From the IMG/VR virus record IMGVR_UViG_3300027852_000009, positions 1 through 45,729 of that record: 45,729 bases of DNA, one strand, 5' to 3'. This DNA is from a virus. The translations under genes were made by a program, and so were the position numbers. The notes beneath the pieces are model-generated. The model saw only the letters and a list, made by a program, of their open reading frames with translations, was not told the origin of the DNA and made no database searches. Below, piece by piece: positions 1 to 45,729 of the stretch. Within the stretch, counting starts at the first letter, position 1. Every line of letters starts with the position of its first letter.

Positions 1-651
1 GGTAATGAAGTTGATGGCTCTACAATCGACGCACAGGTGACACGTTCACTGTCAGGCGGTGACAAGGGCCAGATGTCAATGAACGATGCCTTCAAGCGTG
101 AAGACAGTATCCTGGGAAATCGTGGTACACTTGAAAGTCTCGACAAGGTATCCCTCGGTCTCCAAGACACATCCTATGGTGCCGAAGGCGTCATCGCTGA
201 CCTCAACCTATTTGCGAAGACACTGTTGTCGCGTGGTCTGACTGAAGACGAAATGAACCGACCTCTGACCCAAGCTAGAATTCAGGGCCTCATTGGTAAA
301 ACCAAAGACGATGTTGTTGGTCCCGGTGTTATGACTGAAGCCGATGCTGGCCGTGTTATCAGCGCCCTCGGTGGCGACCTGAAGTCAATCCTTGCCAACC
401 CTGAACTGGGTGTGGAACTGCTTGCTGACATGCACCGGAAGACAAAGCGTAAATATGACTTCGAACGGGGCCAATGGGACACCATGAGGGAAGCATATCC
501 CAACATCCCTTATTCCGATCTAGGTGCCCGCTACGAGTCTCCTGAGTGGCGTAAGAATGGTTCCAAGCCAAGCCGGGGTGCCCTGTCTGATGACACCATC
601 TCAGGTGGTGGGAGTGTTGACGACATCCTCAAGGGCTACAATATCAACTAA
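1..651 (+). CDS. C-terminal part of the SLT-domain internal virion protein (same ORF as 44747..45729, read across the circular junction)
   Basis: Frame is open from nt 1 (GNEVDGSTIDAQ...). It is in phase with the ORF starting at 44747 once the 23-bp end overlap is collapsed. Stop at 649-651. Confidence 0.8.
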   Translation, partial: GNEVDGSTIDAQVTRSLSGGDKGQMSMNDAFKREDSILGNRGTLESLDKVSLGLQDTSYGAEGVIADLNLFAKTLLSRGLTEDEMNRPLTQARIQGLIGKTKDDVVGPGVMTEADAGRVISALGGDLKSILANPELGVELLADMHRKTKRKYDFERGQWDTMREAYPNIPYSDLGARYESPEWRKNGSKPSRGALSDDTISGGGSVDDILKGYNIN

Positions 652-661
652 AGGAAACTGA

Positions 662-3600
662 ATGTCCGACCAACTGCTGCGCCTTGAACAAGGCATCAGA
701 GCGGCACATGAAGCGGGCAATGCAGAACACGTCAAGGTACTGGGGGCGGAATATCGCCGCCTTCAGTCCGAGATGTCTGCACCTGCCCCTGAACCTGCCC
801 CAGAACAAAAAGCTGCTCCTGCAACTGGCTTTGGTGACGCCCTCCAATTTGGATGGGACAACGCTGGCCGTAACGTGGGGGGTGGCCTCGAAAGTATCGG
901 TGAACTTCTTGATTGGGATGCTGCGAAGATCGTAGGCAACCACCAGAAGACAACCAACCAGCGTGAAATCGACGCTGCGAATTACTCCCGCCCTGAGGGT
1001 GCTGATGGCGTCCTTACAAACCTCATGCAAGGCGACTTAGCCAATGCTGGGAAGTCCCTCGGCTATGCTGCTGCTGAGAGTGGACCATCAATTGCAACTG
1101 GTGCCTTAGCATCTGGCGCTGCTGTAGCAAGTGGCCCTGTGGCCCTCGGAACCGCTGTTCTGGGTACTGGCGCAACTGCGCTCCAAGCACTCGGTGAGAA
1201 CCGACAGGAGAAGGTAGAGAAGGGTCTCGACCCAACAGCCACATACACAGACCTCGCCTCGGCTGTAGCCTCTGGCGCTGTTGAACTCCTGCCACTCGGT
1301 AAAGCCGGTGGTGGTTTCACTTTGAAGTTCACAAAGGAAGGTCTGCAAGAAGCTGGACAAGAAGGTCTGGTTATCGGTAGCACTGCTGTCCAAGGTGGTG
1401 AATATGTCCCTGAGGAAATCGCCAATCGTCTAGGCGAAGCCTTCGTCGTCGGTGGTGCAATCTCTAAAGGTATGGACGCGACCGTGAACACTGCTGGCAA
1501 AGTTGCTGGTGCTGTTGTTCCAAGCCGAACAGACAACCGGGAATTCACTGGTGACGAAGTTGCTGCTGCTGAACGTATCAAACGTCATGCAGATGGTAGT
1601 GATAAAGTCCTTGGAAACGTCAACGATGATGGGGCAGGGACAGCCAAAGGCGCAGCCAACGCAGCCCTTAGGGAAGCCCGTGCTGAAGCTGAAGCACTCA
1701 CTGCTGATCTGAAGGCAGTTGCCAAGATCACCGATGGTGCTGGTGACGCTGATGTAGCCCTCAAATCACTGGGAAAGATCAAGAGTCACCAAGGGTCAAC
1801 GACCTCTGAACACGCTCTGGATCGTGTTTCTACCGCCCTTCCAGACAACACTGATGTTGCTCGTCTCCGGTCAGTCCTGAAAGAGATTGATGCAATTCAG
1901 GAGTTCACTAAAGGCTCCGACAACGACATGGGTGGCGTATCACGCCTTGCCAAGAAACTTGATCCTCTGGACAAGCGGAACAATAACGCCTTTGGGACAC
2001 ACGCACTTCTCGCTGGTGGCCTTGTCCGTGGCTCTGTTGCCAGTGCTATGGCTATCCCAATTGCAATCAACCGGGCCTCCCGCGTTCTGGATCGTCTGAC
2101 TAATCGCCGGTCTCGTGTGAAACGCTTTGTTGATAGTGCCAAGAAGTCTGGAACCGCTGCAACGCAGATTGATGGACCGACATCTGGTGACATCCTGACG
2201 AAGCTGAAGACTGACCAAGCTGCTATCAAGATGGCAGATGCAAATGCCAAGGTAGCCAAAACTGCACAATCGGACGCCCAGAAGGCCCACATGGCCTATG
2301 AGAAGGCAATGGGCACAAATATCCCTCAAGGCCCTGTGACCCCCCGTAGACCGGCTGACATAGCCCGTCAGGCACAAATGGCTCAACAAGCTGGCATTCC
2401 ATCAGTCCGTGAAGTGACTATGAAGGCTAGAGCAGAGAAAGCTGCCTTGGATCAATCCAATGCAACCTCCCAGGACGCCCGTGGTCTGAAGGCCCAGAAC
2501 CAATTGGCGACTGAACAACAACGTGCCCAAAAGCTGGCCATGTCCCAACAAGCCTTGGACAAGACCCAAGCTGCTGCCCAGCGCCAGACCGAAATGAATA
2601 AAGTCATCTATGACGAAATGTTCAGAACCGGGAAGGTGCCTGAAGGACGTGCGTTCAAGACGTATCAGTTGATGGAACATGCCACAGGTATGAACCCCAA
2701 GAAGGCCGCTCAGACACTCGATCTGCTGGCTCAAGAGGGTCTTATTGACCCAATGATTGCTGAGAAGTTTAAGACTGACCCTGATTGGTTCGCAAATAAC
2801 CCAAAGGATGCCTACAAGGCCCAAGAACTGGTCCGACAGGCTGCTAACCCTGAATACACCGCCCCCCCATTTGTGAAGGACAAGGCGAAAGCCCCCGTAC
2901 ACCCTGACGAGGTTCTGAGGAAGCTGGAAATGGCCGCTGCACGTCCGACATCAAGTCGTCGGAAGCAGAAGGCAATGGAAGGTGATCTGAGGTACAAGCG
3001 TATCCTGCAAGAGATTGCCAAAGCTGAAGGCTCACTGCCCACAAACCAATACAAAGGTTTGTTGCAACTGGTCGAAGAGATGAACCGCCCAGATAGCAAT
3101 ATCACAGACAGGTACACCCTGATCAGCGAGGGCCTGGACATCATCTTTGATGGTAACCCAGCAATGAAGGCATTTTGGGACCGTAAGCTGGCCCCTCTGG
3201 CCGCTATCGGAAACGATCAACGAATTCACCACGCCAAGGTGGAAACCGATCCGGTTCAGGATCAAATGGAAGTCGCCTTTGAAACGAAGGTGAAGAAAGC
3301 TAAGAAGCGAAAAAAGAAACCGGAACTCCCGAAAAAGCCCTCACAAGAGGTGCCAATTACGCAAGAGCCGGATGCCCCTGCTGTAACCCCAGCGGAGAAG
3401 GCGCTCAAAAAGCTGAACAAACCCACACCTGAACCGGAACCTGCCTTGGATCAGTCCAACGCAACCACGACACAGGACCAGCAGGAACCCGTCAAGCCTG
3501 TCAAAACGAAGGCAAGGAAGACCCTGAAGGACCGTACTGATGCTCGTATTGATGACCTGCACTACATGGTCTATCTGGCCGAGACTGAAGGCGACAACCT

Positions 3601-5965
3601 GTCCCAGCACATCGCTAAGTTGGGAAAGGGTTCTGTATCCCGTGTCGAAGGTCTGATCTATCAGTTTGCATCTGATCGTGTGACTGTGAACCAACTGGTT
3701 GATGCCTACAGCACTGAGTATGGAATTCCCCCACAGGACGCCGCAAGGATCGTCAATGACGCCTTGGGTGTTATGGAATTGGAAGGTCAACTCAAGCGCT
3801 TCACTCCAAAGCATTCCGACAGACTGATCTACGATGGTAAGATGGTGAAGACCGAAGACGGAAAGACTGTCTCGGTACTCCAATTACAATTCATGGATGG
3901 ACCTCTGAAGGATCGTGTGGAAGTGGCCAAGGCTGTTCGCTGGACCGAGAAAATGGTCCCAATGGACGCACCAGACAAGAACTTCGACCCAAACTATACC
4001 CAAGATGGAGCGTTCAACGCCTTCAAAGGTATCCCCTCAGATCGTGTGGATGGCACCTTTATGCCGTTGCTGAACATGCTGAACTCCATGCGTAACTCGA
4101 CTATGGCTGTGTCCTCCAAGATGCTAACCCAGATCGAAGATGCGCTGGGCGGTACAGGTGCCAAACGTCAAGGTACAATCAACGAGGTGATGACCCCAAA
4201 GGACAAGCATGGGAAGCCGGATGAAAGTCCGATGCGTACCGTGGCTCAGTTGATCTTCCAGCTAGGCCCTCAGGATGACCGACCCAGCAATCTGATCCGA
4301 CAGGAATGGATGTCTGGCGACAACGGTCGCATCTACTCAAAGAACAGCCTTGCACACTCGCAGGCCGGTGACTTGATGAAGGGTATCCTCAGAACCAACG
4401 AGAAACATCCTGTAGGTGGTGAACCGGGCATGAAAATGCTTATGCACTCCATTGGGAACCTCTTGGGCTTTGACAAGCTGGCTCCGTCATATCGACGTTC
4501 TGCCATCTTCGATCACAATCTGGTCGATGGTTTGGTGAAACTGGCTAATGACCCGTTTGGCAGACAGACCTTGAAGAACGAACGCACCGGGATCACACCT
4601 ATCGGTAAGATGGTCAAGGATGGCGAAGGGTTCTTCCAAGTCCTGAATGCTGCTCATGAAGTCAAAGATATGGTTGATTGGGCGCGTGAACGCCACACCG
4701 ACATGGACGAACTGTCCAATTCTGAACTGCTATCTCACCCTGACGTGGTGGATGACCTGGGTCGGAACTATACGACAGATTTTGTTGTCCAACTTGATGC
4801 CAAGAACAACGCTTACCAGAACCTCGGGATGATGATGGGATACGACAAGGTGCTACGGGAAACCGGAATGCTACCTATGTCACCTGACAACGACCCCGAC
4901 AGTGGTGAAGTTGCTGACATCTACATCAAACCAGCCGTTGGCGTAGCTGAACGAATTCCTGAGTTGTCCGAGTTGGCACTCCCTCAAGGTAAATTGAGGA
5001 AGCTGTTCAAAGGCCCCATTGGGACGTACCTCTACGCCGCTGCATTCAACAGCCGAAAGAAGTCCTTCAGGGACACGCTTGAGGACATGACAGACGGTGC
5101 TGAACTGTTTGGAATGGATGGTGAGGATGCCATGATCAACATTGATCCGGCCCTAAGTGCAGCAATGCTCTCTGAGGAAGGTCATACGTTTGTTGATGAG
5201 CATTACGATGTGAATGGTGATAGCAAGTCAACCAAGGCGACACGGAAGCGTGTTGTGGAAAAAGGTGGCAAGTTCCAAGTCCAGAATGCCGAAGGTGCCG
5301 CTGGCGCTTGGAGTGCTGGTGGGATGAAGTTCAATAGCCCTCAGGAAGCCGTAAAGGAGACCTACTCGACCAACCTCTTTGCTCGTATGAGCCGAGAATT
5401 GGTGAGGGAAATGAACACGCTGTATCCTGATGTGCAGAAGTACCTGAACTACGCTGAGATTGTGTCCAAGGTTGTCAAAGATCGTGGTGGTGCAGACATT
5501 ATTGTACCGACCGCTGATGGCATTGACCTTCGCTACTCCTTTAAGCAGACACCCGGTTTTGAAGCTGCCCCTGTCACCCTTGGTGATGGACGTGTGGTTG
5601 ATCTAGGTGTTCGCAACGCTGACGAGAAGCTGGCTGGCCGTGGCCTAGCTGCCTTCATGGCTCACCAAATGGACGCCTTTGTCCTGAGGGAGACCCACAA
5701 GCGTATGGGGGATATGAAGTCCTTCAACCCAATCCATGACAGCTTTGGCTTTCATCCTTCTGACGCCCAGCGCGGACAGGAGACATGGGTAGGTGTGATG
5801 CAAGAACTTGGTGATGCGAACTACAACATCTTCCTGAATATCCTCGAAGCCAACGGCGTAACGCTTGAGGAATTCGTGGGCGCTGGTGGTGACCCCTCGG
5901 TCATCCTCGGTCGGCAAGGTGTTGCACCCGTACCGGCAGGCCAAATCCCTACGGCTTTGTCGTAA
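662..5965 (+). CDS. Giant virion-module protein (1767 aa) with a C-terminal T7/N4-type single-subunit RNA polymerase domain (putative virion-packaged RNAP)
   Basis: aa ~1120-1767 match T7 RNAP motif by motif. LNMLNSMRNSTMAVSSKML matches YKAINIAQNTAWKINKKVL. SGDNGRIYSK...AGDLMKGIL matches MDWRGRVYAV...GNDMTKGLL (T/DxxGR). VVQLDAKNNAYQNLG is motif A. KGPIGTYLY is motif B (K-N7-Y). NPIHDSFGF is motif C. The N-terminal ~1100 aa are Ala/Gly/Gln-rich and low complexity. The gene lies between the SLT internal protein and the terminase genes. SD AAGGAA precedes the ATG at 662. Confidence 0.85.
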   Translation: MSDQLLRLEQGIRAAHEAGNAEHVKVLGAEYRRLQSEMSAPAPEPAPEQKAAPATGFGDALQFGWDNAGRNVGGGLESIGELLDWDAAKIVGNHQKTTNQREIDAANYSRPEGADGVLTNLMQGDLANAGKSLGYAAAESGPSIATGALASGAAVASGPVALGTAVLGTGATALQALGENRQEKVEKGLDPTATYTDLASAVASGAVELLPLGKAGGGFTLKFTKEGLQEAGQEGLVIGSTAVQGGEYVPEEIANRLGEAFVVGGAISKGMDATVNTAGKVAGAVVPSRTDNREFTGDEVAAAERIKRHADGSDKVLGNVNDDGAGTAKGAANAALREARAEAEALTADLKAVAKITDGAGDADVALKSLGKIKSHQGSTTSEHALDRVSTALPDNTDVARLRSVLKEIDAIQEFTKGSDNDMGGVSRLAKKLDPLDKRNNNAFGTHALLAGGLVRGSVASAMAIPIAINRASRVLDRLTNRRSRVKRFVDSAKKSGTAATQIDGPTSGDILTKLKTDQAAIKMADANAKVAKTAQSDAQKAHMAYEKAMGTNIPQGPVTPRRPADIARQAQMAQQAGIPSVREVTMKARAEKAALDQSNATSQDARGLKAQNQLATEQQRAQKLAMSQQALDKTQAAAQRQTEMNKVIYDEMFRTGKVPEGRAFKTYQLMEHATGMNPKKAAQTLDLLAQEGLIDPMIAEKFKTDPDWFANNPKDAYKAQELVRQAANPEYTAPPFVKDKAKAPVHPDEVLRKLEMAAARPTSSRRKQKAMEGDLRYKRILQEIAKAEGSLPTNQYKGLLQLVEEMNRPDSNITDRYTLISEGLDIIFDGNPAMKAFWDRKLAPLAAIGNDQRIHHAKVETDPVQDQMEVAFETKVKKAKKRKKKPELPKKPSQEVPITQEPDAPAVTPAEKALKKLNKPTPEPEPALDQSNATTTQDQQEPVKPVKTKARKTLKDRTDARIDDLHYMVYLAETEGDNLSQHIAKLGKGSVSRVEGLIYQFASDRVTVNQLVDAYSTEYGIPPQDAARIVNDALGVMELEGQLKRFTPKHSDRLIYDGKMVKTEDGKTVSVLQLQFMDGPLKDRVEVAKAVRWTEKMVPMDAPDKNFDPNYTQDGAFNAFKGIPSDRVDGTFMPLLNMLNSMRNSTMAVSSKMLTQIEDALGGTGAKRQGTINEVMTPKDKHGKPDESPMRTVAQLIFQLGPQDDRPSNLIRQEWMSGDNGRIYSKNSLAHSQAGDLMKGILRTNEKHPVGGEPGMKMLMHSIGNLLGFDKLAPSYRRSAIFDHNLVDGLVKLANDPFGRQTLKNERTGITPIGKMVKDGEGFFQVLNAAHEVKDMVDWARERHTDMDELSNSELLSHPDVVDDLGRNYTTDFVVQLDAKNNAYQNLGMMMGYDKVLRETGMLPMSPDNDPDSGEVADIYIKPAVGVAERIPELSELALPQGKLRKLFKGPIGTYLYAAAFNSRKKSFRDTLEDMTDGAELFGMDGEDAMINIDPALSAAMLSEEGHTFVDEHYDVNGDSKSTKATRKRVVEKGGKFQVQNAEGAAGAWSAGGMKFNSPQEAVKETYSTNLFARMSRELVREMNTLYPDVQKYLNYAEIVSKVVKDRGGADIIVPTADGIDLRYSFKQTPGFEAAPVTLGDGRVVDLGVRNADEKLAGRGLAAFMAHQMDAFVLRETHKRMGDMKSFNPIHDSFGFHPSDAQRGQETWVGVMQELGDANYNIFLNILEANGVTLEEFVGAGGDPSVILGRQGVAPVPAGQIPTALS
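2447..2460. repeat. TTGGA-N4-TCCAA element, copy 1 (intragenic)
   Basis: TTGGATCAATCCAA inside the 1767-aa CDS, read in frame as L-D-Q-S-N. Confidence 0.9.
3446..3459. repeat. Element copy 2 (intragenic)
   Basis: TTGGATCAGTCCAA in the same CDS, again L-D-Q-S-N. About 26 nt of extended similarity to copy 1. Confidence 0.9.
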
Positions 5966-5984: not shown

Positions 5985-5998
5985 TTGGACTAATCCAA
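5985..5998. repeat. Element copy 3
   Basis: TTGGACTAATCCAA. Arms extend to 14 nt (5976-6007). The 3' arm contains the SD for the 6021 start. Confidence 0.9.
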
Positions 5999-13603: not shown

Positions 13604-15666
13604 CTGAACCACACAGAAATGCTACATCCCTATATGCCATCAAAGGTGGTCAGATTGGGAACAACATACTTACTGAACTCCTTCGCGGCCTCTCGTCCTA
13701 CAATCTCTGGATTGAACTTGGGAATGAGGGAACAGAAGAGGACTACCTAGAATGGCTCAGAGGCCCTCAAGGAATCCCAGGTATCGGAATTCAAGGTATC
13801 CAAGGCCCACCCGGTCCTGAAGGCAGTGTAGCCTCAGACCCAGGTTCATCCTTCGTCATCTATGCTCAGAAATACGCTCCTAGTTCATCTGGCCATTTAA
13901 CAATCGGGGCCACAGATGGTGACCCTAATGCAGTCTTTGTGGCACCTGTAGGGTTCCATATGGATTGTCTGACATTCGCTACAAGCGCTGAGGCAGGTCT
14001 TACCTATGATATGACGGTAAAGGTCTGGGTCAACGGTGTGATGAGACATGGTAGTGTCATCGCTTCTGGGACTGGGAAAACCACCATAGTTGATGACGGG
14101 ATAGATGTGGCTGTTTCTGCTGGCGACACTATCAACCTAACGTACACTTGTGGTGGTGTGAACAGCAGCCTAACCATTACAACAGCCATTCACTGTTCCT
14201 CTGGACGTGGTGGTGGTTTCTTTGACCTACGATGTGCCCAAGCACAGTGGTCAGATAATGGTTTCTGGATGTCTTGGGGTGATCGTAATGCGTATGGCAG
14301 AGAAGGTATGCCTGCACCTATGAACTACCAACTAGACACAATAACACTTGGGTTTGACCGCGCGCCTGATTACGACACGGGTACTCTGGAAGTCTACATT
14401 GATGGGGCTGTTGTAGCGACTGCTAATGTGTCTAACACTACCGAACAGACTCTTGGGCCTTTTGGCTTGGACGTATCCAAAGGAGACCGTATTGGTTTCA
14501 AAGTAATTGGCGACTTGGATGGCTTAGGTGGTACTCTAAACTGTAAATTACTAGCCTCATGTTTTGATGCTAATGGCGATGGCGGTGTGTCGCAACACAT
14601 GGTTGTTGGGTCTAATAAGGACATGGACAACGGTGAGGCGTATGGTCATTTAGGAGCCTATGTTGTCCCTAAGGATTGTACGATGACCGCTGTTGGCATG
14701 GGCTTCTACGAGTCAGTATCGGTGACAGAGCATATACTGTATTACTCGTTAAATGGTGGTACTTCTACTGAACTAATGACTCTCCCTATCGGCTATCAGG
14801 GTTTAAGTTCTACTGGACTGTCTTTGGCTCTTTCTGCTGGTGACATTATTGAATTTACCCACACTGGTGGGGATAGTGGCACCACTGGTACTGCAAGTGT
14901 CGTTTTCGAATACGCTGCCACTGGTGTCGTGGACTACCCTAAAGTTCCTTTAATCACTTCAGGGACCACAGGGTATGCTATCACTGTCAATGCAACTGAA
15001 GACGCCTATGAGTTGACAGGGCCATACTCTGATGGCGCTGACGGTCTTGATGGTGCTACAGGTCCAGCAGGCGCTGACGGTCTTGATGGTGCTACAGGTC
15101 CAACAGGTCCAACAGGTCCAGCAGGCGCTGACGGTCTTGATGGTGCTACAGGTCCAACAGGTCCAGCAGGCGCTGACGGTCTTGATGGTGCTACAGGTCC
15201 AGCTGGTCCAGCAGGCGCTGATGGAGTTGATGGTGTGCTTTCTGGGACCGTAGCAGAATTCAACACGGCTTTGTCGGATGGAGACTTTGCAACTCTAAGT
15301 GGCGTTGAAGACCTAACCTTTAAAACGCTATCTAGGCCCTACATTATCCATGGTGTTGATTGGTCAACCTCCACCGCTAGGACATTGGTTATCACAGACA
15401 TTGCTAAGAAGATTTTCATGGTTAGTGCTTCTCCCAACACGGTAACAATCCCAACAAATGCATCTGTACCGTTCTTAGCTGGTTCTATCATAGGTATCAC
15501 CACGTATGGCGCTGGTACAACTTCAATTGTGGCTGACACAGGTGTGTATGTGAATGGGGTTTTGGCTGGTGCCACTACAATCCTTAATCAGTATTCAGGT
15601 GTCACGCTAACTTATGTAGGGACAGATACATGGGTGCTGGAAGGTAATCACGGTGTAATTTCATGA
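13600..15666 (+). CDS. Tail fibre with collagen-like Gly-X-Y repeats
   Basis: ATGA overlap with the upstream stop and SD AAGGAGGGGG. Contains GPQGIPGIGIQGIQGPPGPEG and a long (GADGLDGATGPxGP)n block. Confidence 0.8.
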   Translation: MTEPHRNATSLYAIKGGQIGNNILTELLRGLSSYNLWIELGNEGTEEDYLEWLRGPQGIPGIGIQGIQGPPGPEGSVASDPGSSFVIYAQKYAPSSSGHLTIGATDGDPNAVFVAPVGFHMDCLTFATSAEAGLTYDMTVKVWVNGVMRHGSVIASGTGKTTIVDDGIDVAVSAGDTINLTYTCGGVNSSLTITTAIHCSSGRGGGFFDLRCAQAQWSDNGFWMSWGDRNAYGREGMPAPMNYQLDTITLGFDRAPDYDTGTLEVYIDGAVVATANVSNTTEQTLGPFGLDVSKGDRIGFKVIGDLDGLGGTLNCKLLASCFDANGDGGVSQHMVVGSNKDMDNGEAYGHLGAYVVPKDCTMTAVGMGFYESVSVTEHILYYSLNGGTSTELMTLPIGYQGLSSTGLSLALSAGDIIEFTHTGGDSGTTGTASVVFEYAATGVVDYPKVPLITSGTTGYAITVNATEDAYELTGPYSDGADGLDGATGPAGADGLDGATGPTGPTGPAGADGLDGATGPTGPAGADGLDGATGPAGPAGADGVDGVLSGTVAEFNTALSDGDFATLSGVEDLTFKTLSRPYIIHGVDWSTSTARTLVITDIAKKIFMVSASPNTVTIPTNASVPFLAGSIIGITTYGAGTTSIVADTGVYVNGVLAGATTILNQYSGVTLTYVGTDTWVLEGNHGVIS
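14467..14480. repeat. Element copy 7 (intragenic)
   Basis: TTGGACGTATCCAA plus AGGAGACC inside the fibre CDS, read as L-D-V-S-K. No start codon follows. Confidence 0.85.
15034..15234 (+). repeat. In-frame tandem DNA repeat encoding a collagen-like triple-helix segment
   Basis: About 4.5 copies of GGCGCTGACGGTCTTGATGGTGCTACAGGTCCA plus a variable number of (ACA/GCA/GCT)GGTCCA units. Confidence 0.95.
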
Positions 15667-30928: not shown

Positions 30929-31192
30929 AGTGATGAGTGGGGGCAAGCAGTAACCAGACATCCCGTGGGTCTGGGATTTGAACCCAGTGCTTGTATTCAA
31001 CCCCACTCATTGGATAGGCCGACCCTGAGGTTTGGAGAACCAAGGGAGGGGGCGGGGCGGGCCAGCCTATCTAAAGAAGGGGGTTTGTGTGGGTCTCTCC
31101 CCACTTGTCACCGTTAGCCTTACGGTCTGGACCGGGGCGCTACCCCGACATGCTCTGAGCCGTTCCCCAGTGAAGGGAAACGGAATTAAATT
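30929..31192 (-). ncRNA. Candidate structured non-coding transcript between the RNAP gene and the replication genes
   Basis: No SD-preceded ORF. GC-rich. Bounded by the 39-bp promoter-like repeat and a terminator. Several strong hairpins (31160-31183; the 10-bp stem 30933-30942/31001-31010). Confidence 0.3.
30961..30990 (-). other. tRNA 3'-half-like segment (canonical T-arm), possible attP core remnant
   Basis: Minus sense CTGGG-TTCAAAT-CCCAG followed by ACCCACG. The T-loop matches T54-T55-C56-R57-A58 with G53:C61. No complementary 5' acceptor strand or D-arm nearby. Confidence 0.35.
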
Positions 31193-31231
31193 TCGGATGA
31201 TACTCCTAGTGTGTCTAAGTATTGTCCCATC
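31193..31231 (-). promoter_or_regulatory. 39-bp repeat copy 1 (phage-RNAP promoter-like)
   Basis: Minus sense GATGGGACAATACTTAGACACACTAGGAGTATCATCCGA. Identical to 35192-35230. Lies 8 nt downstream of the RNAP stop. Confidence 0.5.
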
Positions 31232-31238
31232 GACTGCC

Positions 31239-32981
31239 TTATGAGAAGAAAAACTCACTTTTCAGTATGTCTTGGACATTAAAGAGGCCCAACTCAGGTG
31301 CATCAGGCATGGTTAGCCCACTGTAACGCTCAACACTCTCCTTCCAGACTGCAAGGTAATCATCGTCGTACATATCGACCATTGATTGACGAAGAATGTC
31401 ACGCATTGTGCCAACATGAGCGAAGGGACACCCAAAGCTATCATGGATCATGCTGAAGTCTCTGATTCCGATGTCGTGCATACGATTGACCGTGATCTGT
31501 AGGTGAGAGGCATCACAGGAATGGACAACATTTGGTGGCGCTGCTGTTGCCATCTTGCCTTTGTCGATCCCTACACGTCTGAGGAAGTCAACCTCTTCTT
31601 CACCCTCGTCTGGCTCCATGTAGACTAGGAACCGAGTGTCAAATGAGGTGATCCTTTTTGAGATAAGGTTCCGATAGGCTTGGGTGACCTTGGACCCAGC
31701 AGGAGTATCCCAGCACAGAGGTAGGTTGTTCTCTGCACACAGTGCAGCACATTCCATGAACCAAGCCTGTAGGGCCTTACCACGGTTCAGGGTCTTGTCC
31801 ACCGCCTCCAAGATCAAGTCCCTCATGTACTTAGCCTGATCCCACTTGTCTGGACCGGGTTCAACGTGCTTGTCTGCAATCATGAAGTCAGCAACACCAC
31901 GGGCTGTGACCCCATAAGGCACAGTCATGACAGACCGTTTGACCACCTTACGGCGTTTACTAGGGTCTGACATTTTGGCTGACCATTTAAGGGCCATAGG
32001 ATCATCATTGGCAGCGTCAATCTGTATCTGTTCCCAGACACGATCAGCAACTTCCATGTAGAGGTCTTCCCTTGGCCCTGTCATGCAATTGGTAGCCTTG
32101 GCTCCCACAAGGTCACAGGCCATGACACTCAGATGTTGCGCGCCATTGCATGAACCATCTAGGTTGCCGGGTAGGTGCGACATGAAGTCTTCAGGGTCAC
32201 CCAAACGCCAAGCAAAGACCCACTCATAAGCCACGGCTAGGAATTGGAATGGTTTGTCAGCCTTGAGCCATCCTCTGTTCTTCATTGGGTCATCCACCCA
32301 CGAACCAATCAATGCCAGGTTTTCAACTGCCCATTCCATACGCTCGTCAGGGTGTAGCTTATCCTCACCAAAGTGAGTGGCAACTGTGAACCCCATCCAG
32401 TAGACCCCTTCGGACCCCAGCCGGGTAGGCTTGGCAAACCTTAGGAGACCCTTGGCCAGATCACTTGATTGTGGTGTGAGGTCTGAGGGGATGGGATAGA
32501 TGCGTGTTCTGAAGTCCATGTTGTGGGGAAAATAGAACTTATCGAACTCCCACATCTCGCGGGCTGTTGATAGGATGCGTCTTGCAGACCGGGCCTCACC
32601 TAGTTGGGATTTGTAATCTTCATGGATGATTTGCTTGGCCTGCTTGTTGGCCTTCTTATCATCTGGTGACATCTCATCCCAGACCTCAGGGTCAAACCAA
32701 AGGTCTTGTAAGGCTGACGTGGTAGCTGGGTTGATAGGCTCATCCAACCTCAGGACAACCTCTCCATCATGTATGATGTCCATCTTACGATCAAGGAACT
32801 GATCTAGGATGTTGAGAATTTGGCCATTAACTGTCCAAGCTGTTTCTTGGACGTAGTTGACTGCGTTGACTGTGTAGTTTGAAATTTGGGTCATGTCGGT
32901 TGCCGTGTGGCCGCTGCCACCTACACCACGGACTAGGTTTTCGTTGTGGAGGAAGTAACCTCCTGAATATTGAACTGTCAT
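31239..32981 (-). CDS. T7-like RNA polymerase, large (catalytic) subunit
   Basis: SGGYFLHNENLV aligns with T7 GGGYWANGRRPL. MDFRTRIYPIPSDLTPQSSDLAKGLL is T/DxxGR. NLDGSCNGAQHLSVM is motif A. KRSVMTVPYGVT is motif B. MIHDSFGCPF is motif C. C-terminal DILKSEFFFS aligns with T7 DILESDFAFA. Confidence 0.95.
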   Translation of the reverse strand: MTVQYSGGYFLHNENLVRGVGGSGHTATDMTQISNYTVNAVNYVQETAWTVNGQILNILDQFLDRKMDIIHDGEVVLRLDEPINPATTSALQDLWFDPEVWDEMSPDDKKANKQAKQIIHEDYKSQLGEARSARRILSTAREMWEFDKFYFPHNMDFRTRIYPIPSDLTPQSSDLAKGLLRFAKPTRLGSEGVYWMGFTVATHFGEDKLHPDERMEWAVENLALIGSWVDDPMKNRGWLKADKPFQFLAVAYEWVFAWRLGDPEDFMSHLPGNLDGSCNGAQHLSVMACDLVGAKATNCMTGPREDLYMEVADRVWEQIQIDAANDDPMALKWSAKMSDPSKRRKVVKRSVMTVPYGVTARGVADFMIADKHVEPGPDKWDQAKYMRDLILEAVDKTLNRGKALQAWFMECAALCAENNLPLCWDTPAGSKVTQAYRNLISKRITSFDTRFLVYMEPDEGEEEVDFLRRVGIDKGKMATAAPPNVVHSCDASHLQITVNRMHDIGIRDFSMIHDSFGCPFAHVGTMRDILRQSMVDMYDDDYLAVWKESVERYSGLTMPDAPELGLFNVQDILKSEFFFS

Positions 32982-33007: not shown

Positions 33008-33021
33008 TTGGATTAGTCTAA
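33008..33021. repeat. Element copy 17 (variant arm), at the RNAP split point
   Basis: TTGGATTAGTCTAA. Encodes L-D-stop of the small subunit. Followed (minus sense) by an A9 run (32997-33005) and the large-subunit ATG. Confidence 0.85.
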
Positions 33022-39937: not shown

Positions 39938-39967
39938 TGGGACAATACTTGGACACATAGTGATACA
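39938..39967 (+). promoter_or_regulatory. 30-bp element related to the 39-bp repeat (copy A)
   Basis: Identical to 38756-38785. Lies in the divergent control region, ~70 nt from the 39871 start and ~540 nt from the 40510 start. Confidence 0.45.
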
Positions 39968-40106: not shown

Positions 40107-40130
40107 CACTATGGCCACAACGCGCCACAC
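40107..40130. repeat. 24-bp box, copy A
   Basis: CACTATGGCCACAACGCGCCACAC. See 38622-38645. Confidence 0.85.
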
Positions 40131-40140
40131 TGGCCTTGCC

Positions 40141-41686: not shown

Positions 41687-43306
41687 ATGACAATCATCCC
41701 AACTCGTGAGATTGGTAAGCTGGGTGTTATCTCTGATCAGAATGACCACGACTTACCCGGTGTAGCGTGGTCTGATGCCAACAACCTCAGGTTTTCCCGT
41801 GGGGTAGTTTCTAGGTACTCGGTATTCAAGTATTTTGATAAAGCCTACAATTATGCCGCCCAGCGCCCTGTAGGTATTGTTGAGGCCGGTGGAACTGAAG
41901 GTACTGGTTTTGTTGTTACCGTCATGAATGATGGTTCTATGGAACAGAGAATTGACGCCACAACTACTGATGTGACCCCAACGGGCACCCTAACAACAAA
42001 CAATGGCCAGATCACAACCTGTGAACTTGGTACTCTAACATATGTAAATCGACATGTGGATGTTCCGATATACCGGGAAAACCCTGGGGATGGTGCTTTT
42101 GTTCCGATCCCCGGCTGGACCTCAACCGACCGATGTAGATCACTCCGGTCCTATAAGGACTTCCTGATCGCCCTAAACGTGACCAAAGGGTCCGTGTCCT
42201 ACCCCTCCATGATCAAATGGTCCGATGCTGCCCAAGTGGGCGCTCCCCCAGACGATTGGGATACGACTGATCTGTCGTCCCTATCTGGTGAGAACGTCCT
42301 GAACGACTGCCGTGAAGGTCTGGTCGATGGTCTATCCTTGGGTGACACCTTCATCCTCTATGGGGCCTCCCAGACGTTCCGTATGGACTTCATTGGGGAG
42401 CCTTTGGTTTTCCGAACAGCCAAGGTCTTTGATGACCAAGGCGTGATGGCTCCGAACTGTGCCGTTTCTGTTGAAGGCCGACACTACGTGTTTGGAAACT
42501 CCGACATCTATATGCACGATGGCTTGTCCAAGAAGTCTATCGCTGATGGGCGTGTCCTTGAGCGTGTTATGAATGAATTGGACTGGGAAAATCGTGATAG
42601 GTGTTTTGTCTACCATGACAACATTATGGGTGAGATAGGGTTTTGTTACCCCTCCAAATCTTCAGACGCTAAGTGGCAACTTGAGAAGGTCAATGGGTGT
42701 AACCGAGCGATGGTCTATAACTATCGGTCAGACACATGGTCTCCCGTAGACATGCCTTCAGTTGTCGGTGTGACAGAAGCCTCACAAGCCGACACCCAGA
42801 CATGGGCTGATATGCCTTCTAAATGGACCAAGGCTCGTATGACATGGGATAGCCTACAAAGCGTAAACCCATCTGCACTTTTACTTTGCTCAACTGGTAA
42901 TGGAGCAGTAGCAGGACAGCCTTACTTCCTAGACCTTATTTCAAGTGGTCGGATTAGTGCTGAAGAAGCTGATGAAGTTCTATGGTGGGCTTGGGGTAAG
43001 ATGCTCTACAAGGATATGGATGAACTCGGTGTTGAGTTGTATGGCCGAAAGTTAATACGTTCTGTTGACCTCCAATTCGGATCAAAGGATAGCGAAAGCG
43101 AGATTAGGTTTCGACTTGGGCAATCCCGAGGCCCTAACACAGCTATCAAGTGGGGCCGAAAAGCCTCCTTCAATGCCTGGGGTGAAACCCGGTATGATTG
43201 CCGCATCAACGACAGATACCTAGCCCTAAGGATAGAATATCCCAGTGGTGTTGATGTTGATTTTGGAGGCTTTGATCTGGACTTTAATATGATTGCTAAA
43301 AGGTAA
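41687..43306 (+). CDS. Virion structural protein (tail tube/nozzle candidate)
   Basis: 539-aa ORF in the tail module. No motif I can name. Confidence 0.4.
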   Translation: MTIIPTREIGKLGVISDQNDHDLPGVAWSDANNLRFSRGVVSRYSVFKYFDKAYNYAAQRPVGIVEAGGTEGTGFVVTVMNDGSMEQRIDATTTDVTPTGTLTTNNGQITTCELGTLTYVNRHVDVPIYRENPGDGAFVPIPGWTSTDRCRSLRSYKDFLIALNVTKGSVSYPSMIKWSDAAQVGAPPDDWDTTDLSSLSGENVLNDCREGLVDGLSLGDTFILYGASQTFRMDFIGEPLVFRTAKVFDDQGVMAPNCAVSVEGRHYVFGNSDIYMHDGLSKKSIADGRVLERVMNELDWENRDRCFVYHDNIMGEIGFCYPSKSSDAKWQLEKVNGCNRAMVYNYRSDTWSPVDMPSVVGVTEASQADTQTWADMPSKWTKARMTWDSLQSVNPSALLLCSTGNGAVAGQPYFLDLISSGRISAEEADEVLWWAWGKMLYKDMDELGVELYGRKLIRSVDLQFGSKDSESEIRFRLGQSRGPNTAIKWGRKASFNAWGETRYDCRINDRYLALRIEYPSGVDVDFGGFDLDFNMIAKR

Positions 43307-43483: not shown

Positions 43484-43892
43484 ACCAACCCGATATACCA
43501 TTCTGGATAACCACGAATTCCTCCTGACGGGGGAGTGGGTGGCCGATGGTGAGTTTTGGGTTCTACATTGCACCTTCTTGGTGCCTTGGACGAAGGGCTT
43601 GAGAAAGCGTTTTACCAATTTGCTACGAAGTGTGTCGGCCCGTACTGACTACCCGTGCTACGCTTTCCAAGCCCCTTCGTGTGACCCATTGAAACGTAAA
43701 TTCATCCAACAGGTTGGGGGCGTCTTCGAACACTACGCTACCTCCGATGAAGGAGAAGTTTGCGAGATGTTCCGCTTCCTCCCTTGGACTAATCCAAAGG
43801 ACCAACATGAGTTCTCTATTCAAATCAAAAACGAAGACGGTGCAGAACCCATTCGAAAGCAACCCTTGGGAGGCCCAGCAAGACTACCTTAA
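43467..43892 (+). CDS. Hypothetical protein (start uncertain)
   Basis: 141-aa ORF with only a TTG or other non-ATG start. The 3' end overlaps the next gene by 86 nt and contains an element copy. Confidence 0.35.
   Translation: MKHPHEPTRYTILDNHEFLLTGEWVADGEFWVLHCTFLVPWTKGLRKRFTNLLRSVSARTDYPCYAFQAPSCDPLKRKFIQQVGGVFEHYATSDEGEVCEMFRFLPWTNPKDQHEFSIQIKNEDGAEPIRKQPLGGPARLP
43784..43797. repeat. Element copy 28
   Basis: TTGGACTAATCCAA plus AGGACC, upstream of the 43807 start. Read as P-W-T-N-P-K in the overlapping upstream ORF. Confidence 0.9.
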
Positions 43893-44745
43893 AGAAGGTT
43901 TTGACAAAAGCACAACTGCCCTCAACAATGGCCTAAATACGTCAGGGGGTATTACTGACTACACCGCTGACCTAAATGCAGGCCAGCTTGGCTCTCTAAA
44001 CAGCCTTACAGAATTTGGTAATGGTGCCGCACAGGATGTAGCTAGTACCTTCACTAGCCAAGGGAACGCCACGGTTGGTGACCTTAGTCGGTCCTCGACA
44101 GAAGCTAACGCTTACATGGACCTAGCCAATACTGACCGCACTGGTCAGATAATTGATCGCGCCACGCAATACGCTGAAAACCCCTATATGCAATCTATGA
44201 TTGACGGGGCGATTAGCGACGTGAACAAAGGGTTCCAAAGGGACCAAGGTGGTATTAACTCGGCTGCGTCAGGGACAGGGAATATCAACTCATCTCGTGC
44301 CGGTGTGATGGAAGCCTTGGCCCTTGATGACGCCATGGATCGCTCTGGAAGTATCTCTTCGACCATGAGAGGTAATGCCTATGAAAATGGCCTGAACCGC
44401 TCGTTTATGCAGGATAGCCAAGGCATGGCTGAACGTCTGTCTGGTATCGGTGCCCTATCTCAAACTGGTGCTGTTGGTGCTGATATGCTGACTGCTGGTC
44501 TGAATACTTCGCAAGGCGGTTACAACACGGCCCTTGGCGCACAGTCGATGTTGCAGGCACAAGCCCAAGCTGAGATTGAGGGTAAGCGCACACAGTCCCG
44601 TGAAGAGTTGGACCTCGTTCAACAGTACATGAAGAGTGTGGGTGGTAACTACGGCTCCCAAGGGTTCCAATCTCAAACAACCCAGTCGGCATCACCATTC
44701 CAGCAAATTACTGGTGTTGCTTCATCGCTGATGGGTGCCTTCTAA
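43807..44745 (+). CDS. Internal virion / ejection-type protein (Gly/Ser/Asn/Gln/Ala-rich)
   Basis: ATG at 43807 preceded by element copy plus AAAGGA. 312 aa. Immediately upstream of the SLT protein. Confidence 0.5.
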   Translation: MSSLFKSKTKTVQNPFESNPWEAQQDYLKEGFDKSTTALNNGLNTSGGITDYTADLNAGQLGSLNSLTEFGNGAAQDVASTFTSQGNATVGDLSRSSTEANAYMDLANTDRTGQIIDRATQYAENPYMQSMIDGAISDVNKGFQRDQGGINSAASGTGNINSSRAGVMEALALDDAMDRSGSISSTMRGNAYENGLNRSFMQDSQGMAERLSGIGALSQTGAVGADMLTAGLNTSQGGYNTALGAQSMLQAQAQAEIEGKRTQSREELDLVQQYMKSVGGNYGSQGFQSQTTQSASPFQQITGVASSLMGAF

Positions 44746-44746
44746 A

Positions 44747-45729
44747 ATGGCCTCCTATCAGGAGATGGCCCGAGGCCACGCCATTAGAGCGGGAATTGAC
44801 CCTGACAGGTTCCTCAGACAGATCAATCAAGAGAGTGGGTGGAACCCTAAGGCCCGATCCTCTGCGGGGGCCTATGGTCTTTCACAGGCTATGCCTGACA
44901 CTGCCCGACAGCCGGGTTATGGTGTCCGACCTCTGACAGACATCGACAACCCAGATGAACAACTCCGATTTGGGGCTGACTATCAAGCAGCCATGATTAA
45001 AGCCAATGGGGGTGACACTGACCGAGCCTTAGCAGCTTACAACTTTGGTCAGGGTAACCTCGACAAACACGGCATGGATAACCTGCCCGAAGAAACCCGT
45101 AATTACATCAACATAATCAACGGCAACGGCATCCTGCATGGAGGCACTGGTGATGATAGGCTGTTTGGTGGTCAAGGAGAAGATATGATGGGATCAGGTA
45201 ATCGCCCCCGCCTAGACATTACCCCGCCGACTATTGGTGAGGGTCTGAAAAACGGATCGCTAAGTATGCCTGATGACCTCATGGGGAGAATGTTCCCTGA
45301 TGAGAGCAAAGGTGAAATTGGCTGGTTCAAAAACCTCAACCCCAACCTTTCCTCGGACGGTGTGGACAATCGACTACTGGCCATTGGTGCTGGTCTACTG
45401 TCCGGTGATGATTGGGCTTCAGGCTTTGCTGCCTCTGCCCAGAACCTCAATAATGTTGTCAGTGGTGAACAGGCCGACCGTAAGAATGAAGATGCGACCA
45501 ATGCTGAATGGGATTGGAGGGCTGATCAGGACAAGCGAGATAAAGACTGGCGCTCAAGGGAGAGTGCCCTCGGTCGTGCATCTGCTGAACGCCGCGCTGC
45601 TGAAGTAGGCAACCGAAAGAAGCATTTAGGTAACGTGAAGATGGCTAATGGTGAATTCCGTGCTGACATCTCCGTAGACCAAAATGGCCAATTCTGGGAC
45701 AGCGCTGGTAATGAAGTTGATGGCTCTAC
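44747..45729 (+). CDS. Internal virion protein with an N-terminal soluble lytic transglycosylase (SLT) domain; continues into 1..651
   Basis: QINQESGWNPKARSSAGAYGLSQAMPDTA...ALAAYNFGQGNL (catalytic Glu, GLxQ and AYNxG motifs). Not in the ORF track because it runs off the window end. Confidence 0.9.
   Translation, partial: MASYQEMARGHAIRAGIDPDRFLRQINQESGWNPKARSSAGAYGLSQAMPDTARQPGYGVRPLTDIDNPDEQLRFGADYQAAMIKANGGDTDRALAAYNFGQGNLDKHGMDNLPEETRNYINIINGNGILHGGTGDDRLFGGQGEDMMGSGNRPRLDITPPTIGEGLKNGSLSMPDDLMGRMFPDESKGEIGWFKNLNPNLSSDGVDNRLLAIGAGLLSGDDWASGFAASAQNLNNVVSGEQADRKNEDATNAEWDWRADQDKRDKDWRSRESALGRASAERRAAEVGNRKKHLGNVKMANGEFRADISVDQNGQFWDSAGNEVDGS

Follow-up and report, generated by a model that had tools for sequence, protein, structure and literature searches.

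The giant gene described here is found in a circular phage assembly of 45,729 nucleotides (IMG/VR record IMGVR_UViG_3300027852_000009), which is called the window below and whose ends overlap by 23 nucleotides. The gene begins with ATG, encodes a 1767-residue protein without cysteine, and follows a gene for a 537-aa SLT-type lytic transglycosylase that runs across the window ends. The protein has an N-terminal module resembling a DNA-injection protein and a C-terminal T7-type single-subunit RNA polymerase (RNAP) core. The phage is temperate and short-tailed, and it also encodes a second T7-like RNAP that is split into two subunits and lies ahead of a T7-like replication module comprising primase-helicase, DNA polymerase and exonuclease. 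However, the portal, capsid and adaptor are of the SU10/LUZ24 type, and the gene order differs from that of T7-like phages (Autographiviridae).

Table 1. Features of the window that bear on the giant gene
Positions	Strand	Feature	Supporting observations
662..5965	+	Giant gene, 1767 aa, no cysteine; ejection-type N-terminal module plus C-terminal T7-type RNA polymerase	Open reading frame, PHROG match, cysteine count
662..2311	+	aa 1-550: alpha-helical, Ala/Gly-rich N-terminal module with two hydrophobic Gly/Ala segments (aa 144-178, 449-467)	BLASTP 36-40% identity to the relatives P0025/P0034; hhalign to tf gp51; hydropathy; AlphaFold2
2405..2629	+	aa 582-656: single long helix, Gln/Ala-rich; in-frame copy of the TTGGA-N4-TCCAA motif at nt 2447-2460, encoding LDQSN in a low-confidence linker	AlphaFold2; motif search
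2639..3211	+	aa 660-850: compact helical middle domain, function unknown	Block-mean pLDDT mostly 72-96, one dip to 53 near aa 740-750; no significant PDB fold match
3230..3481	+	aa 857-940: mostly low-confidence Lys/Pro-rich linker; second in-frame motif copy at nt 3446-3459	pLDDT<50 at 857-864, 883-908, 920-940
3524..4066	+	aa 955-1135: conserved helical plus winged-helix-like domain preceding the polymerase core	AlphaFold2 pLDDT mostly >85; weak PqqD-like Pfam hits in 3 of 25 members; weak winged-helix fold hits
4067..5962	+	aa 1136-1767: single-subunit RNAP core (thumb, palm, fingers, specificity-loop-like beta hairpin); SGDNGRIYSK (aa 1218-1227) nt 4313-4342, R1223 nt 4328, D1379 nt 4796, K1450 nt 5009, Y1458 nt 5033, H1668 nt 5663, H1692 and D1693 nt 5735-5740 (D1693 nt 5738)	PHROG, profile, hhalign and fold matches
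44747..45729	+	5' part of the 537-aa SLT-type lytic transglycosylase gene, continuing at the window start	A homolog carries Pfam SLT; 0 Cys
1..651	+	3' part of the SLT gene (first 23 nt duplicate the window end)	
41687..43306	+	539-aa virion protein, homolog of phage tf gp57 particle protein	BLASTP E=2e-60
43714..44745	+	343-aa protein, first in the three-gene block 343 / SLT / giant	Only a weak match to tf gp54
31239..32981	-	C-terminal subunit (580 aa) of the second, split T7-like RNAP	Aligns to T7 318-882
33013..33840	-	N-terminal subunit (275 aa) of the split RNAP	Faint or weak Pfam RPOL_N on the homologs
34098..35192	-	Tyrosine integrase	
35192..35230	-	T7-promoter-like element GATGGGACAATACTTAGACACACTAGGAG... 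ending at the integrase ATG	Perfect 39-nt repeat of 31193-31231
31193..31231	-	Second copy of the T7-promoter-like 39-mer, just downstream of RNAP-C and ahead of the replication genes	
5985..5998	.	One example of the 28-31 copies of the palindromic element CT-N3-TTGGA-N4-TCCAA-N3-AG, right after the giant gene's stop codon	14-position stem (one C.A mismatch)

The family of giant proteins, which includes for example WP_306680456.1, is small (~45 clusters) and almost wholly metagenomic, with one prophage in the sequenced lysogen Pseudogemmobacter lacusdianii CPCC 101601. Among 1.84 billion representatives, 45 match at E<=1e-10, and apart from truncated fragments the polymerase domain always sits at the extreme C-terminus of a 1660-1965-aa protein. 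The same synteny holds in a member at 28% identity. Megablast of the gene against 50,697 phage records found nothing, as did tblastn of the C-terminal domain, of the N-terminal 513 aa and of an RNAP-less relative. The inter-domain linkers contain in-frame copies of an element that otherwise sits between genes, which suggests that an ancient fusion of separate genes produced the reading frame. An assembly or frameshift artefact joining a structural gene to a separate RNAP gene is nevertheless very improbable, because the uninterrupted architecture appears in about 50 independent sequences from different samples and assemblers and in an NCBI bacterial genome, and the exact 1767-aa protein is on record from JGI, Logan and ENA.

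The C-terminal polymerase domain

The first-pass annotation proposed that the protein ends in a T7/N4-type RNAP catalytic domain, and this observation is confirmed. The four motifs that it named are present in the order it gave: SGDNGRIYSK, then VVQLDAKNNAYQNLG containing D1379, then KGPIGTYLY running from K1450 to Y1458 with the same 8-residue spacing as T7 K631-Y639, and finally NPIHDSFGF containing H1692 and D1693. However, the first of these, which had been read as a T/DxxGR motif, is degenerate. The family consensus is NLRVY, and only the Arg and Tyr (T7 R425 and Y427) are invariant. R1223, Y1225, D1379, K1450, Y1458, H1668, D1671, H1692 and D1693, which map to T7 R425, Y427, D537, K631, Y639, H784, D787, H811 and D812, are invariant in 25 sequences that are 37-58% identical.

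The match is far beyond chance. The PHROG family phrog_414 'RNA polymerase' is matched at E=1.6e-25, and hhalign against the phage's own T7-like RNAP family gives 97.2% probability and E=4.5e-11 over 425 columns, aligning aa 1136-1707 with T7 ~316-826. A single-sequence phmmer search of PDB was marginal (E=0.03), whereas a family profile matched PDB T7 RNAP at E=1.5e-6. Pfam gave nothing useful on the full-length protein, and the isolated C-terminus scored below threshold for PF00940 (19.5 bits against a cut-off of 22), although PF00940 is found at E<=0.01 in 18 of 25 family members (best 3.2e-7). Detectable homology starts at about T7 residue 316, and the second RNAP of the genome is split at about T7 residue 280, so the two boundaries are similar but not, as the annotation had it, exactly the same.

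An AlphaFold2 model of aa 1071-1767 has pLDDT 88.3 and pTM 0.85. Foldseek returned 74 PDB hits at E<1e-3, of which the top 50 are all T7 or mitochondrial single-subunit RNAPs (E 8e-16 to 4e-13, TM 0.52-0.60), with T7, POLRMT and yeast mitochondrial RNAP at E~1e-15. In the viral library, T7-like phage RNAPs head the list, and N4-like vRNAPs rank below them (E 1e-10 to 1e-6). Identity to T7 or mitochondrial RNAPs in structural alignments is only 12-15%, and the domain carries a large insertion at aa ~1470-1570. The T7 N-terminal promoter-binding domain is replaced by ~1135 aa of unrelated helical domains, the last of which may substitute for it. This divergence, together with loss of the T/DxxGR Asp, could indicate that the fold is retained as a DNA-binding or DNA-guiding pseudo-enzyme, for example to hold the leading DNA end. 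However, this seems unlikely, because both catalytic Asp residues, the motif B Lys and Tyr, and the equivalents of T7 H784 and H811 are invariant across sequences down to 37% identity, and pseudo-enzymes normally lose these residues.

The N-terminal module and the injection hypothesis

The N-terminal 1100 aa were first described as low-complexity sequence, but they are predicted to fold into several conserved alpha-helical domains. The N-terminus (aa 21-288) is homologous to that of phage tf gp51 (residues 15-297), the LUZ24 gp50 homolog, with an hhalign probability of 95.6% and E=1.1e-8. That protein is annotated as a phage particle protein from SDS-PAGE size estimates and similarity to LUZ24, and the homology covers only ~290 aa. 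The gene also occupies the syntenic slot in which tf and LUZ24 encode this ~1000-aa protein, since the homolog of tf gp57 is followed by the SLT gene, the giant gene, the terminase, and an SU10-type portal and capsid. A Foldseek search with the model of aa 1-1135, which has low global confidence (pTM 0.36), found no solved ejection protein and nothing with E<0.9.

Relatives of ~1110 aa lack the polymerase. All 30 of those at the same locus keep the N-terminal module but carry a conserved HExxH region instead of the RNAP. Pfam detects no metallopeptidase in them, so only the conserved motif supports such a function. PHROG 6958 'virion structural protein' matches two of the three RNAP-less relatives tested.

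Cysteine is nearly absent from the family, with 4 Cys in 88,368 residues of 51 members, whereas the rest of the proteome has 0.96% and the paralogous, co-resident cytoplasmic RNAP family has 1.39%. At 0.96%, about 17 Cys are expected in this protein, so the probability of finding none is about 4e-8. The same suppression is reported for the ejection proteins N4 gp50 and DEV gp71/72/73 (PMC11445570).

These observations support, although only indirectly, the proposal in the first-pass annotation that the protein is a virion RNAP fused to an ejection-protein-like N-terminus. The gene probably encodes a virion-packaged ejection protein that carries a catalytically competent T7-type RNAP at its C-terminus, although presence in virions, ejection and enzymatic activity are inferred. 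In this model, the protein would be made late, packaged in a few copies, and expelled at infection through the tail together with the 343-aa and SLT proteins. Its hydrophobic Gly/Ala-rich segments would stay with the envelope channel, while the ~830-aa RNAP module, which must refold after ejection, would reach the cytoplasm and transcribe the entering DNA without host RNAP. This would start the early genes and the integrase/split-RNAP operon, and might help to reel the genome in. The split RNAP would then take over middle and late transcription from the T7-like promoters.

Perhaps the polymerase acts mainly as a motor that stays tethered to the envelope channel and pulls the genome in by transcribing it, with gene expression as a by-product. 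This possibility differs from the preceding model only in emphasis and remains tentative. The RNAP is covalently linked, through long helices and disordered linkers, to a module with hydrophobic membrane-type segments, and the block 343 / SLT / giant resembles the vRNAP and two partner proteins for which a transcription-linked 'genome ejection motor' has been proposed in the N4-like phage DEV (PMC11445570). However, there is no evidence on topology, no promoter has been located near a defined genome end because the assembly is circular, and internalization of T7 appears to use host and phage RNAPs that are not tethered.

Alternately, the protein might be a cytoplasmic, non-packaged late RNAP or primase-like enzyme that works only in the producing cell, for example in late transcription, replication priming or packaging. 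The location of the gene in the late, structural strand block next to the terminase is compatible with this role, and some marine Autographiviridae carry additional free-standing ~650-aa RNAPs of unknown role (PMC12361551). This reading is doubtful, because it does not explain the near-total absence of cysteine from the polymerase domain, the obligatory fusion to a particle-protein-type N-terminus in all complete members, or the replacement of the RNAP by a different C-terminal domain in relatives.

Promoter-like elements

The T7-promoter-like sequences lie directly upstream of the integrase/RNAP operon, and a second RNAP to which transcription could be handed over is confirmed directly on the Pseudogemmobacter scaffold. 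A search for related loci in IMG/VR with RNAP-C as the single-protein query matched no pattern. The orientation of the T7-like 20-mer was settled for the copies at 31.2 and 35.2 kb by comparison with a relative, but it is ambiguous for those at 38.7 and 39.9 kb, which are inverted relative to the early genes. No promoter could be assigned to the giant polymerase. Moreover, a phage that already encodes a T7-like RNAP, and whose early region carries sigma-70-like sites, does not obviously need an injected polymerase.

The palindromic element was considered as an N4-style hairpin promoter for the giant polymerase, because it is absent from one RNAP-less relative and its mismatches would be wobble pairs on the template strand. 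However, it is also absent from a distant RNAP-bearing member, it overlaps ribosome-binding sites, and it occurs about 30 times across all gene classes. This reading is therefore not adopted.

A more speculative possibility is that a lineage of temperate podoviruses has fused a T7-type RNAP to a membrane-inserting ejection protein independently of N4, and that the enzyme, delivered through the periplasm and still tethered to the entry channel, both reels in the DNA and fires the T7-like promoter in front of the integrase/split-RNAP operon. Both the lysis-lysogeny decision and the T7-type cascade would then be independent of host RNAP. Because the same N-terminal module carries an HExxH domain in sister phages, it would be a general, exchangeable platform for delivering cargo into the cytoplasm.

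Comparison with known polymerases and injected proteins

Coliphage N4 gp50 and other Schitoviridae virion RNAPs, such as Pseudomonas phage DEV gp71, likewise embed a T7-type RNAP in a giant, cysteine-free, alpha-helix-rich ejection protein, with putative membrane segments in the N-terminal part and genes for other ejection proteins nearby. N4 also appears to have a second, two-subunit T7-like enzyme in its heterodimeric RNAPII. However, the present protein is half the size (1767 aa against ~3400-3500), its RNAP is at the extreme C-terminus rather than central, and it has no large C-terminal encapsidation or gp72-binding domain. N4-like RNAPs are almost always fused to a metallopeptidase (PMC5512222), but HExxH occurs in only 4 of 51 members of this family. 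The sequence is also closer to T7-like RNAPs, with E=1.6e-25 for phrog_414 against 0.31 for the N4-like phrog_2166. The virion module is SU10/LUZ24-type, and the phage is temperate with a ~46-kb genome, whereas Iyer et al. found N4-like vRNAPs only in N4-like phages and prophages. N4-like phages are apparently the only group previously known to inject a T7-type RNAP, and no description of the present family was found in an incomplete literature collection. A second, much smaller fusion in an unrelated virion lineage would show that injecting a polymerase is a recurrent solution.

The domain shares with T7 RNAP and Autographiviridae RNAPs the predicted thumb, palm and fingers fold, catalytic residues, motif order and spacing, and a specificity-loop-like beta hairpin. 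Its gene, however, is in the structural block rather than ahead of the replication genes, a position taken by the split RNAP. LUZ24 gp50 and tf gp51 (~1020-1050 aa) are also alpha-helical and Gly/Ala-rich, and have the same position relative to tf gp57, gp54 and gp52 homologs, but proteins of this type have no polymerase. Hardies et al. 2016 describe internal virion proteins of podoviruses (IVP-D-type) as hosts for lysozyme domains and for cytoplasm-destined domains, including the N4 vRNAP (PMC4819975).

Polyvalent proteins (Iyer, Burroughs, Anand, de Souza, Aravind 2017) are likewise large multidomain proteins predicted to be delivered with the DNA and to carry an early-life-cycle enzyme. UniRef names the Pseudogemmobacter homolog 'Large polyvalent protein associated domain-containing protein', but no LPD Pfam domain was detected here, and that survey listed RNAP modules only of the N4 type, in N4-like contexts. 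In crAss-like phages, a virion-packaged giant protein (phi14:2 gp66) also supplies the first polymerase, but that enzyme carries the DFDxD catalytic motif of cellular multisubunit RNAPs and is not of the T7 type (bioRxiv 10.1101/2020.03.07.982082). The additional ~650-aa RNAPs of marine Autographiviridae groups AG-10.1 and AG-14 are a further case in which a divergent single-subunit RNAP sits beside the canonical one in a T7-like replication context (PMC12361551). Those RNAPs are free-standing genes near the early or metabolism modules and are not fused to a structural protein.

Genome context of the giant protein gene

The first and last 23 nt of the assembly are identical, so it is a circular assembly of a 45,706-bp phage genome. 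One strand block runs from ~40.5 kb across the junction to 17.6 kb and encodes the virion and lysis genes. In order, these are proteins of 89, 284, 539 and 343 aa; an SLT transglycosylase whose gene spans the junction; the 1767-aa giant protein; a 236-aa protein, large terminase, portal, scaffold and major capsid; and a 196-aa virion protein, a collagen-repeat tail fibre and the endolysin. The other strand carries small early genes, including one for an ArdA antirestriction protein, and genes for a tyrosine integrase, a T7-like RNAP split into 275-aa and 580-aa subunits, a primase-helicase, DNA polymerase, exonuclease, thymidylate synthase and ribonucleotide reductase. The tail-fibre gene contains collagen-like 9-nt (Gly-X-Y) repeats.

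Homologous loci carry SU10-type portal, capsid and adaptor domains. The nearest isolates by portal are below 30% identity, and include the Pseudomonas phages UFV-P2, tf and PaP3-type phages, and Pelagibacter phage HTVC106P. The genome therefore combines a T7-like transcription and replication module with an SU10/LUZ24-type virion module, and it is temperate. The split of the conventional T7-like RNAP falls at about T7 residue 280. About 70 related clusters of the split RNAP C-terminal subunit (RNAP-C) exist, and more distant phages also have ~555-570-aa split forms.

Coordinates of features in the phage genome and in two related loci
Feature	Position	Strand	Remark
Terminal overlap	1-23 and 45707-45729		
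SLT transglycosylase gene	44747-45729 plus 1-651		537 aa, cysteine-free; the ORF listed at 37-651 (204 aa) is only its tail
Palindromic element, copies inside the giant ORF	2447-2460 and 3446-3459		In low-confidence inter-domain linkers at aa 596 and 929
In-frame GTG preceded by CAGGAA	~3488		Follows the second in-ORF copy
Palindromic element, further in-ORF copies	14467 and 17159		Tail fibre and endolysin, respectively
Palindromic element, examples of the 28-31 sites	5985, 10339, 12608, 12989, 17740, 18875, 20875, 23498, 25250, 27588, 30887, 33008, 33852, 35280, 35943, 37097, 37764, 38530, 38932, 39902, 40141, 40796, 43784		
Collagen-like repeats	15029-15262		In the tail-fibre gene
Region with no obvious ORF	31009-31192	minus	~180 nt
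T7-promoter-like element, 39-nt direct repeats	31193-31231 and 35192-35230		
T7-promoter-like element, early-region copies	38756-38775 and 39938-39957		
Split T7-like RNAP genes	31239-32981 and 33013-33840	minus	
Region corresponding to the implied attP	33841-34097		
ArdA antirestriction gene	37141-37644	minus	
Conserved 28-mer	38622-38649 and 40107-40134		
Intrinsic-terminator-like hairpin	38961-38984	minus	
RNAP-less relative of the giant protein, example	4399-7728 of L003		L003, locus of an RNAP-less relative
Related locus	94-116 kb of JAVDBT010000008.1		Pseudogemmobacter scaffold (L012)

The polymerase domain and the rest of the protein

The ORF and its four polymerase motifs lie where the first-pass annotation placed them, and the observation that the protein ends in a single-subunit RNAP domain is confirmed. 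The PHROG 'RNA polymerase' profile gives E=1.6e-25. Pfam PF00940 is just below threshold for this sequence, but is found in 18 of 25 relatives. A family profile hits T7 RNAP in the PDB at E=1.5e-6, and hhalign of the family's C-terminal alignment against the phage's own RNAP family gives 97.2% probability, E=4.5e-11, over 425 columns, pairing aa 1136-1707 with residues that correspond to T7 ~316-826. An AlphaFold2 model of aa 1071-1767 is confident (pLDDT 88.3, pTM 0.85), and its top PDB matches are only single-subunit RNAPs, namely human and yeast mitochondrial RNAP and T7 RNAP (E 8e-16 to 4e-13, TM 0.52-0.60).

Residues of the giant protein and the T7 RNAP residues to which they map through these alignments
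Giant protein	T7 RNAP
R1223	R425
Y1225	Y427
D1379	D537
R1446	R627
K1450	K631
Y1458	Y639
H1668	H784
D1671	D787
H1692	H811
D1693	D812

All of these residues are invariant in 25 homologs that are only 37-58% identical to the query. The Tyr that discriminates ribo- from deoxyribonucleotides is kept, so this is an RNA polymerase. However, two details of the first-pass annotation require minor correction. The T/DxxGR motif was listed among the hallmarks present, but its Asp is not conserved. Homology was also said to begin at exactly the boundary at which the second RNAP is split, whereas it begins near T7 residue 316 and the split lies near residue 280.

The AlphaFold2 model of aa 1-1135 is all-alpha, with good local but poor global confidence (pLDDT 76, pTM 0.36). 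It resolves into an Ala/Gly-rich module (aa 1-550) with two hydrophobic Gly/Ala stretches, a 75-residue helix, a compact domain (aa 660-850), a mostly disordered Lys/Pro linker, and a helical, winged-helix-like domain (aa 955-1135) that abuts the polymerase. No solved structure matches significantly.

Resemblance to ejection proteins, and distribution of the family

The interpretation of the protein as a virion RNAP fused to an ejection-protein-like N-terminus is supported, although the evidence is indirect. The 539-aa protein is a clear homolog of phage tf gp57 (E=2e-60). In tf, the following genes end with gp52 and the 1021-aa gp51, both of which are annotated as particle proteins, and the record notes gp51 as similar to LUZ24 gp50. 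Here, the corresponding slots hold the SLT protein and the giant protein. Moreover, the family profile matches the N-terminus of tf gp51 at 95.6% probability, E=1.1e-8, although the tf annotation rests on SDS-PAGE sizes and on similarity to LUZ24.

The protein is also free of cysteine, and in the family the Cys-poor state extends through the polymerase domain. Cysteine suppression is a conserved feature of the ejection operon of N4-like phages, and has been suggested to reflect passage through the periplasm (PMC11445570).

Cysteine content of the giant protein, its relatives and other proteins of the phage
Protein set	Cys	Residues
Giant protein	0	1767
51 family members	4 (0.0045%)	88,368
30 RNAP-less relatives	0	34,057
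SLT protein	0	537
Other proteins of this phage	0.96%	
Split RNAP-C family	578 (1.39%)	41,656

About 30 proteins of ~1110 aa (P0025-P0054, the RNAP-less relatives) sit at the same locus in related SU10-type phages and share the first ~500 aa at 36-40% identity. In place of the polymerase, every one of them carries a region with an invariant LHE[MI][GA]H (HExxH) motif at aa ~890-990. One delivery module therefore carries alternative C-terminal domains. The motif may indicate a zincin-like peptidase cargo, but Pfam does not recognise it.

The architecture of the polymerase-bearing form is fixed. A search of 1.84 billion representatives found 45 relatives of the polymerase domain at E<=1e-10, and, apart from fragments, each is the C-terminus of a 1660-1965-aa protein. 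Ordinary ~800-aa RNAPs appear only at E 1e-6 to 1e-3. A seawater member at 28% identity has the same gene neighbourhood.

All close relatives are metagenomic, and there are six IMG/VR contigs. The one exception is an integrated prophage in Pseudogemmobacter lacusdianii CPCC 101601, whose protein is called hypothetical by NCBI and 'Large polyvalent protein associated domain-containing protein' by UniRef. A distant UniProt relative from an uncultured phage is auto-annotated as a phage-type RNAP. The split RNAP co-occurs with the giant protein. In the integrated prophage (L012, and also L004, another related locus), the gene for the RNAP N-subunit (RNAP-N) lies at the left end, directly next to host genes, which suggests that attP lies between the integrase and RNAP-N.

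Functionally, the closest system is N4 gp50 / DEV gp71. The giant protein differs from that family in size and domain order, in having no metallopeptidase fusion, in a sequence that is closer to T7-like RNAPs, and in belonging to a different virion lineage. Iyer et al. found N4-like vRNAPs only in N4-like phages and prophages (PMC5512222), and Hardies et al. had noted that internal virion proteins host cytoplasm-destined domains, including the N4 vRNAP (PMC4819975). The present protein is a second and apparently independent instance of that principle. A 2025 survey of marine Autographiviridae reports extra RNAPs, but these are free-standing (PMC12361551). No paper describing this family was found, within an incomplete collection of literature.

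Probable mode of action and candidate regulatory elements

An intact T7-type polymerase is covalently attached to a particle-protein-type, cysteine-free carrier that is encoded among the ejection genes. Most likely, the protein is packaged and is ejected with the 343-aa and SLT proteins, its N-terminus stays with the envelope channel and the polymerase reaches the cytoplasm. There it would transcribe incoming DNA without host RNAP, and the split RNAP would then take over. These steps are inferred; presence in virions, ejection and activity have not been demonstrated experimentally.

A suggestive detail is the T7-promoter-like element GATGGGACAATACTTAGACACACTAGGAG, which lies immediately upstream of the integrase/RNAP operon and recurs as a perfect 39-nt repeat just after RNAP-C. 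A relative has ...AAACGTACTCACTAGAGGAAG at the same two positions, and this sequence is close to what is probably the T7 consensus, TAATACGACTCACTATAGGGAGA. A phage-type promoter in front of the phage RNAP genes needs a starter polymerase, and an injected one would serve, although which promoter the injected enzyme uses could not be established. The element is present in four copies. The two 39-nt direct repeats bracket exactly the integrase, RNAP-N and RNAP-C block, in the sense orientation of those genes, and a relative (locus L011) has a T7-consensus-like promoter at the same two positions around its integrase/RNAP block. The other two copies lie in the early region in the opposite orientation, where they would be antisense to the 290-aa early gene and point towards the structural genes. 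Downstream of the second copy of the 39-nt repeat, the region with no obvious ORF is GC-rich with inverted repeats, and could be a small RNA or a replication origin.

A palindromic element, CT-N3-TTGGA-N4-TCCAA-N3-AG, has 31 core matches in the genome against 1.3 expected. Most copies lie in gaps just 5' of start codons, with the 3' arm overlapping the Shine-Dalgarno GGAG. The core is conserved in relatives (loci L001, L002, L004-L008 and L010), and the flanking arm positions covary (CTCC..GGAG against CTGC..GCAG). On the sense strand, A.C mismatches outnumber G.T pairs 38 to 18. The element is absent from an RNAP-less relative (L003) and from a distant RNAP-bearing member (L015). It could be an RNA processing or translational control hairpin, an operator or stoperator-like site, or a polymerase signal.

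In-ORF copies of this element are always in the frame that encodes L-D-x-S-(N/K). About half of 51 family members have xLDQS(K/N) at aa ~525-660 and/or ~817-894, against none of the 30 RNAP-less relatives. Perhaps these copies are relics of gene fusion at intergenic elements; alternatively, they could be internal expression or processing sites, or cleavage sites.

A conserved 28-mer (sense strand GCCWGTGTGGMGCGTTGTGGCCATARTG) lies upstream of the two leftward early transcription units, and one copy overlaps a sigma-70-like site (TTGCCT-17-CATAAT). It is a candidate early promoter for host RNAP or for the injected polymerase. A strong intrinsic-terminator-like hairpin with a U-run follows the 290-aa early gene, which appears to be a separate early transcription unit.
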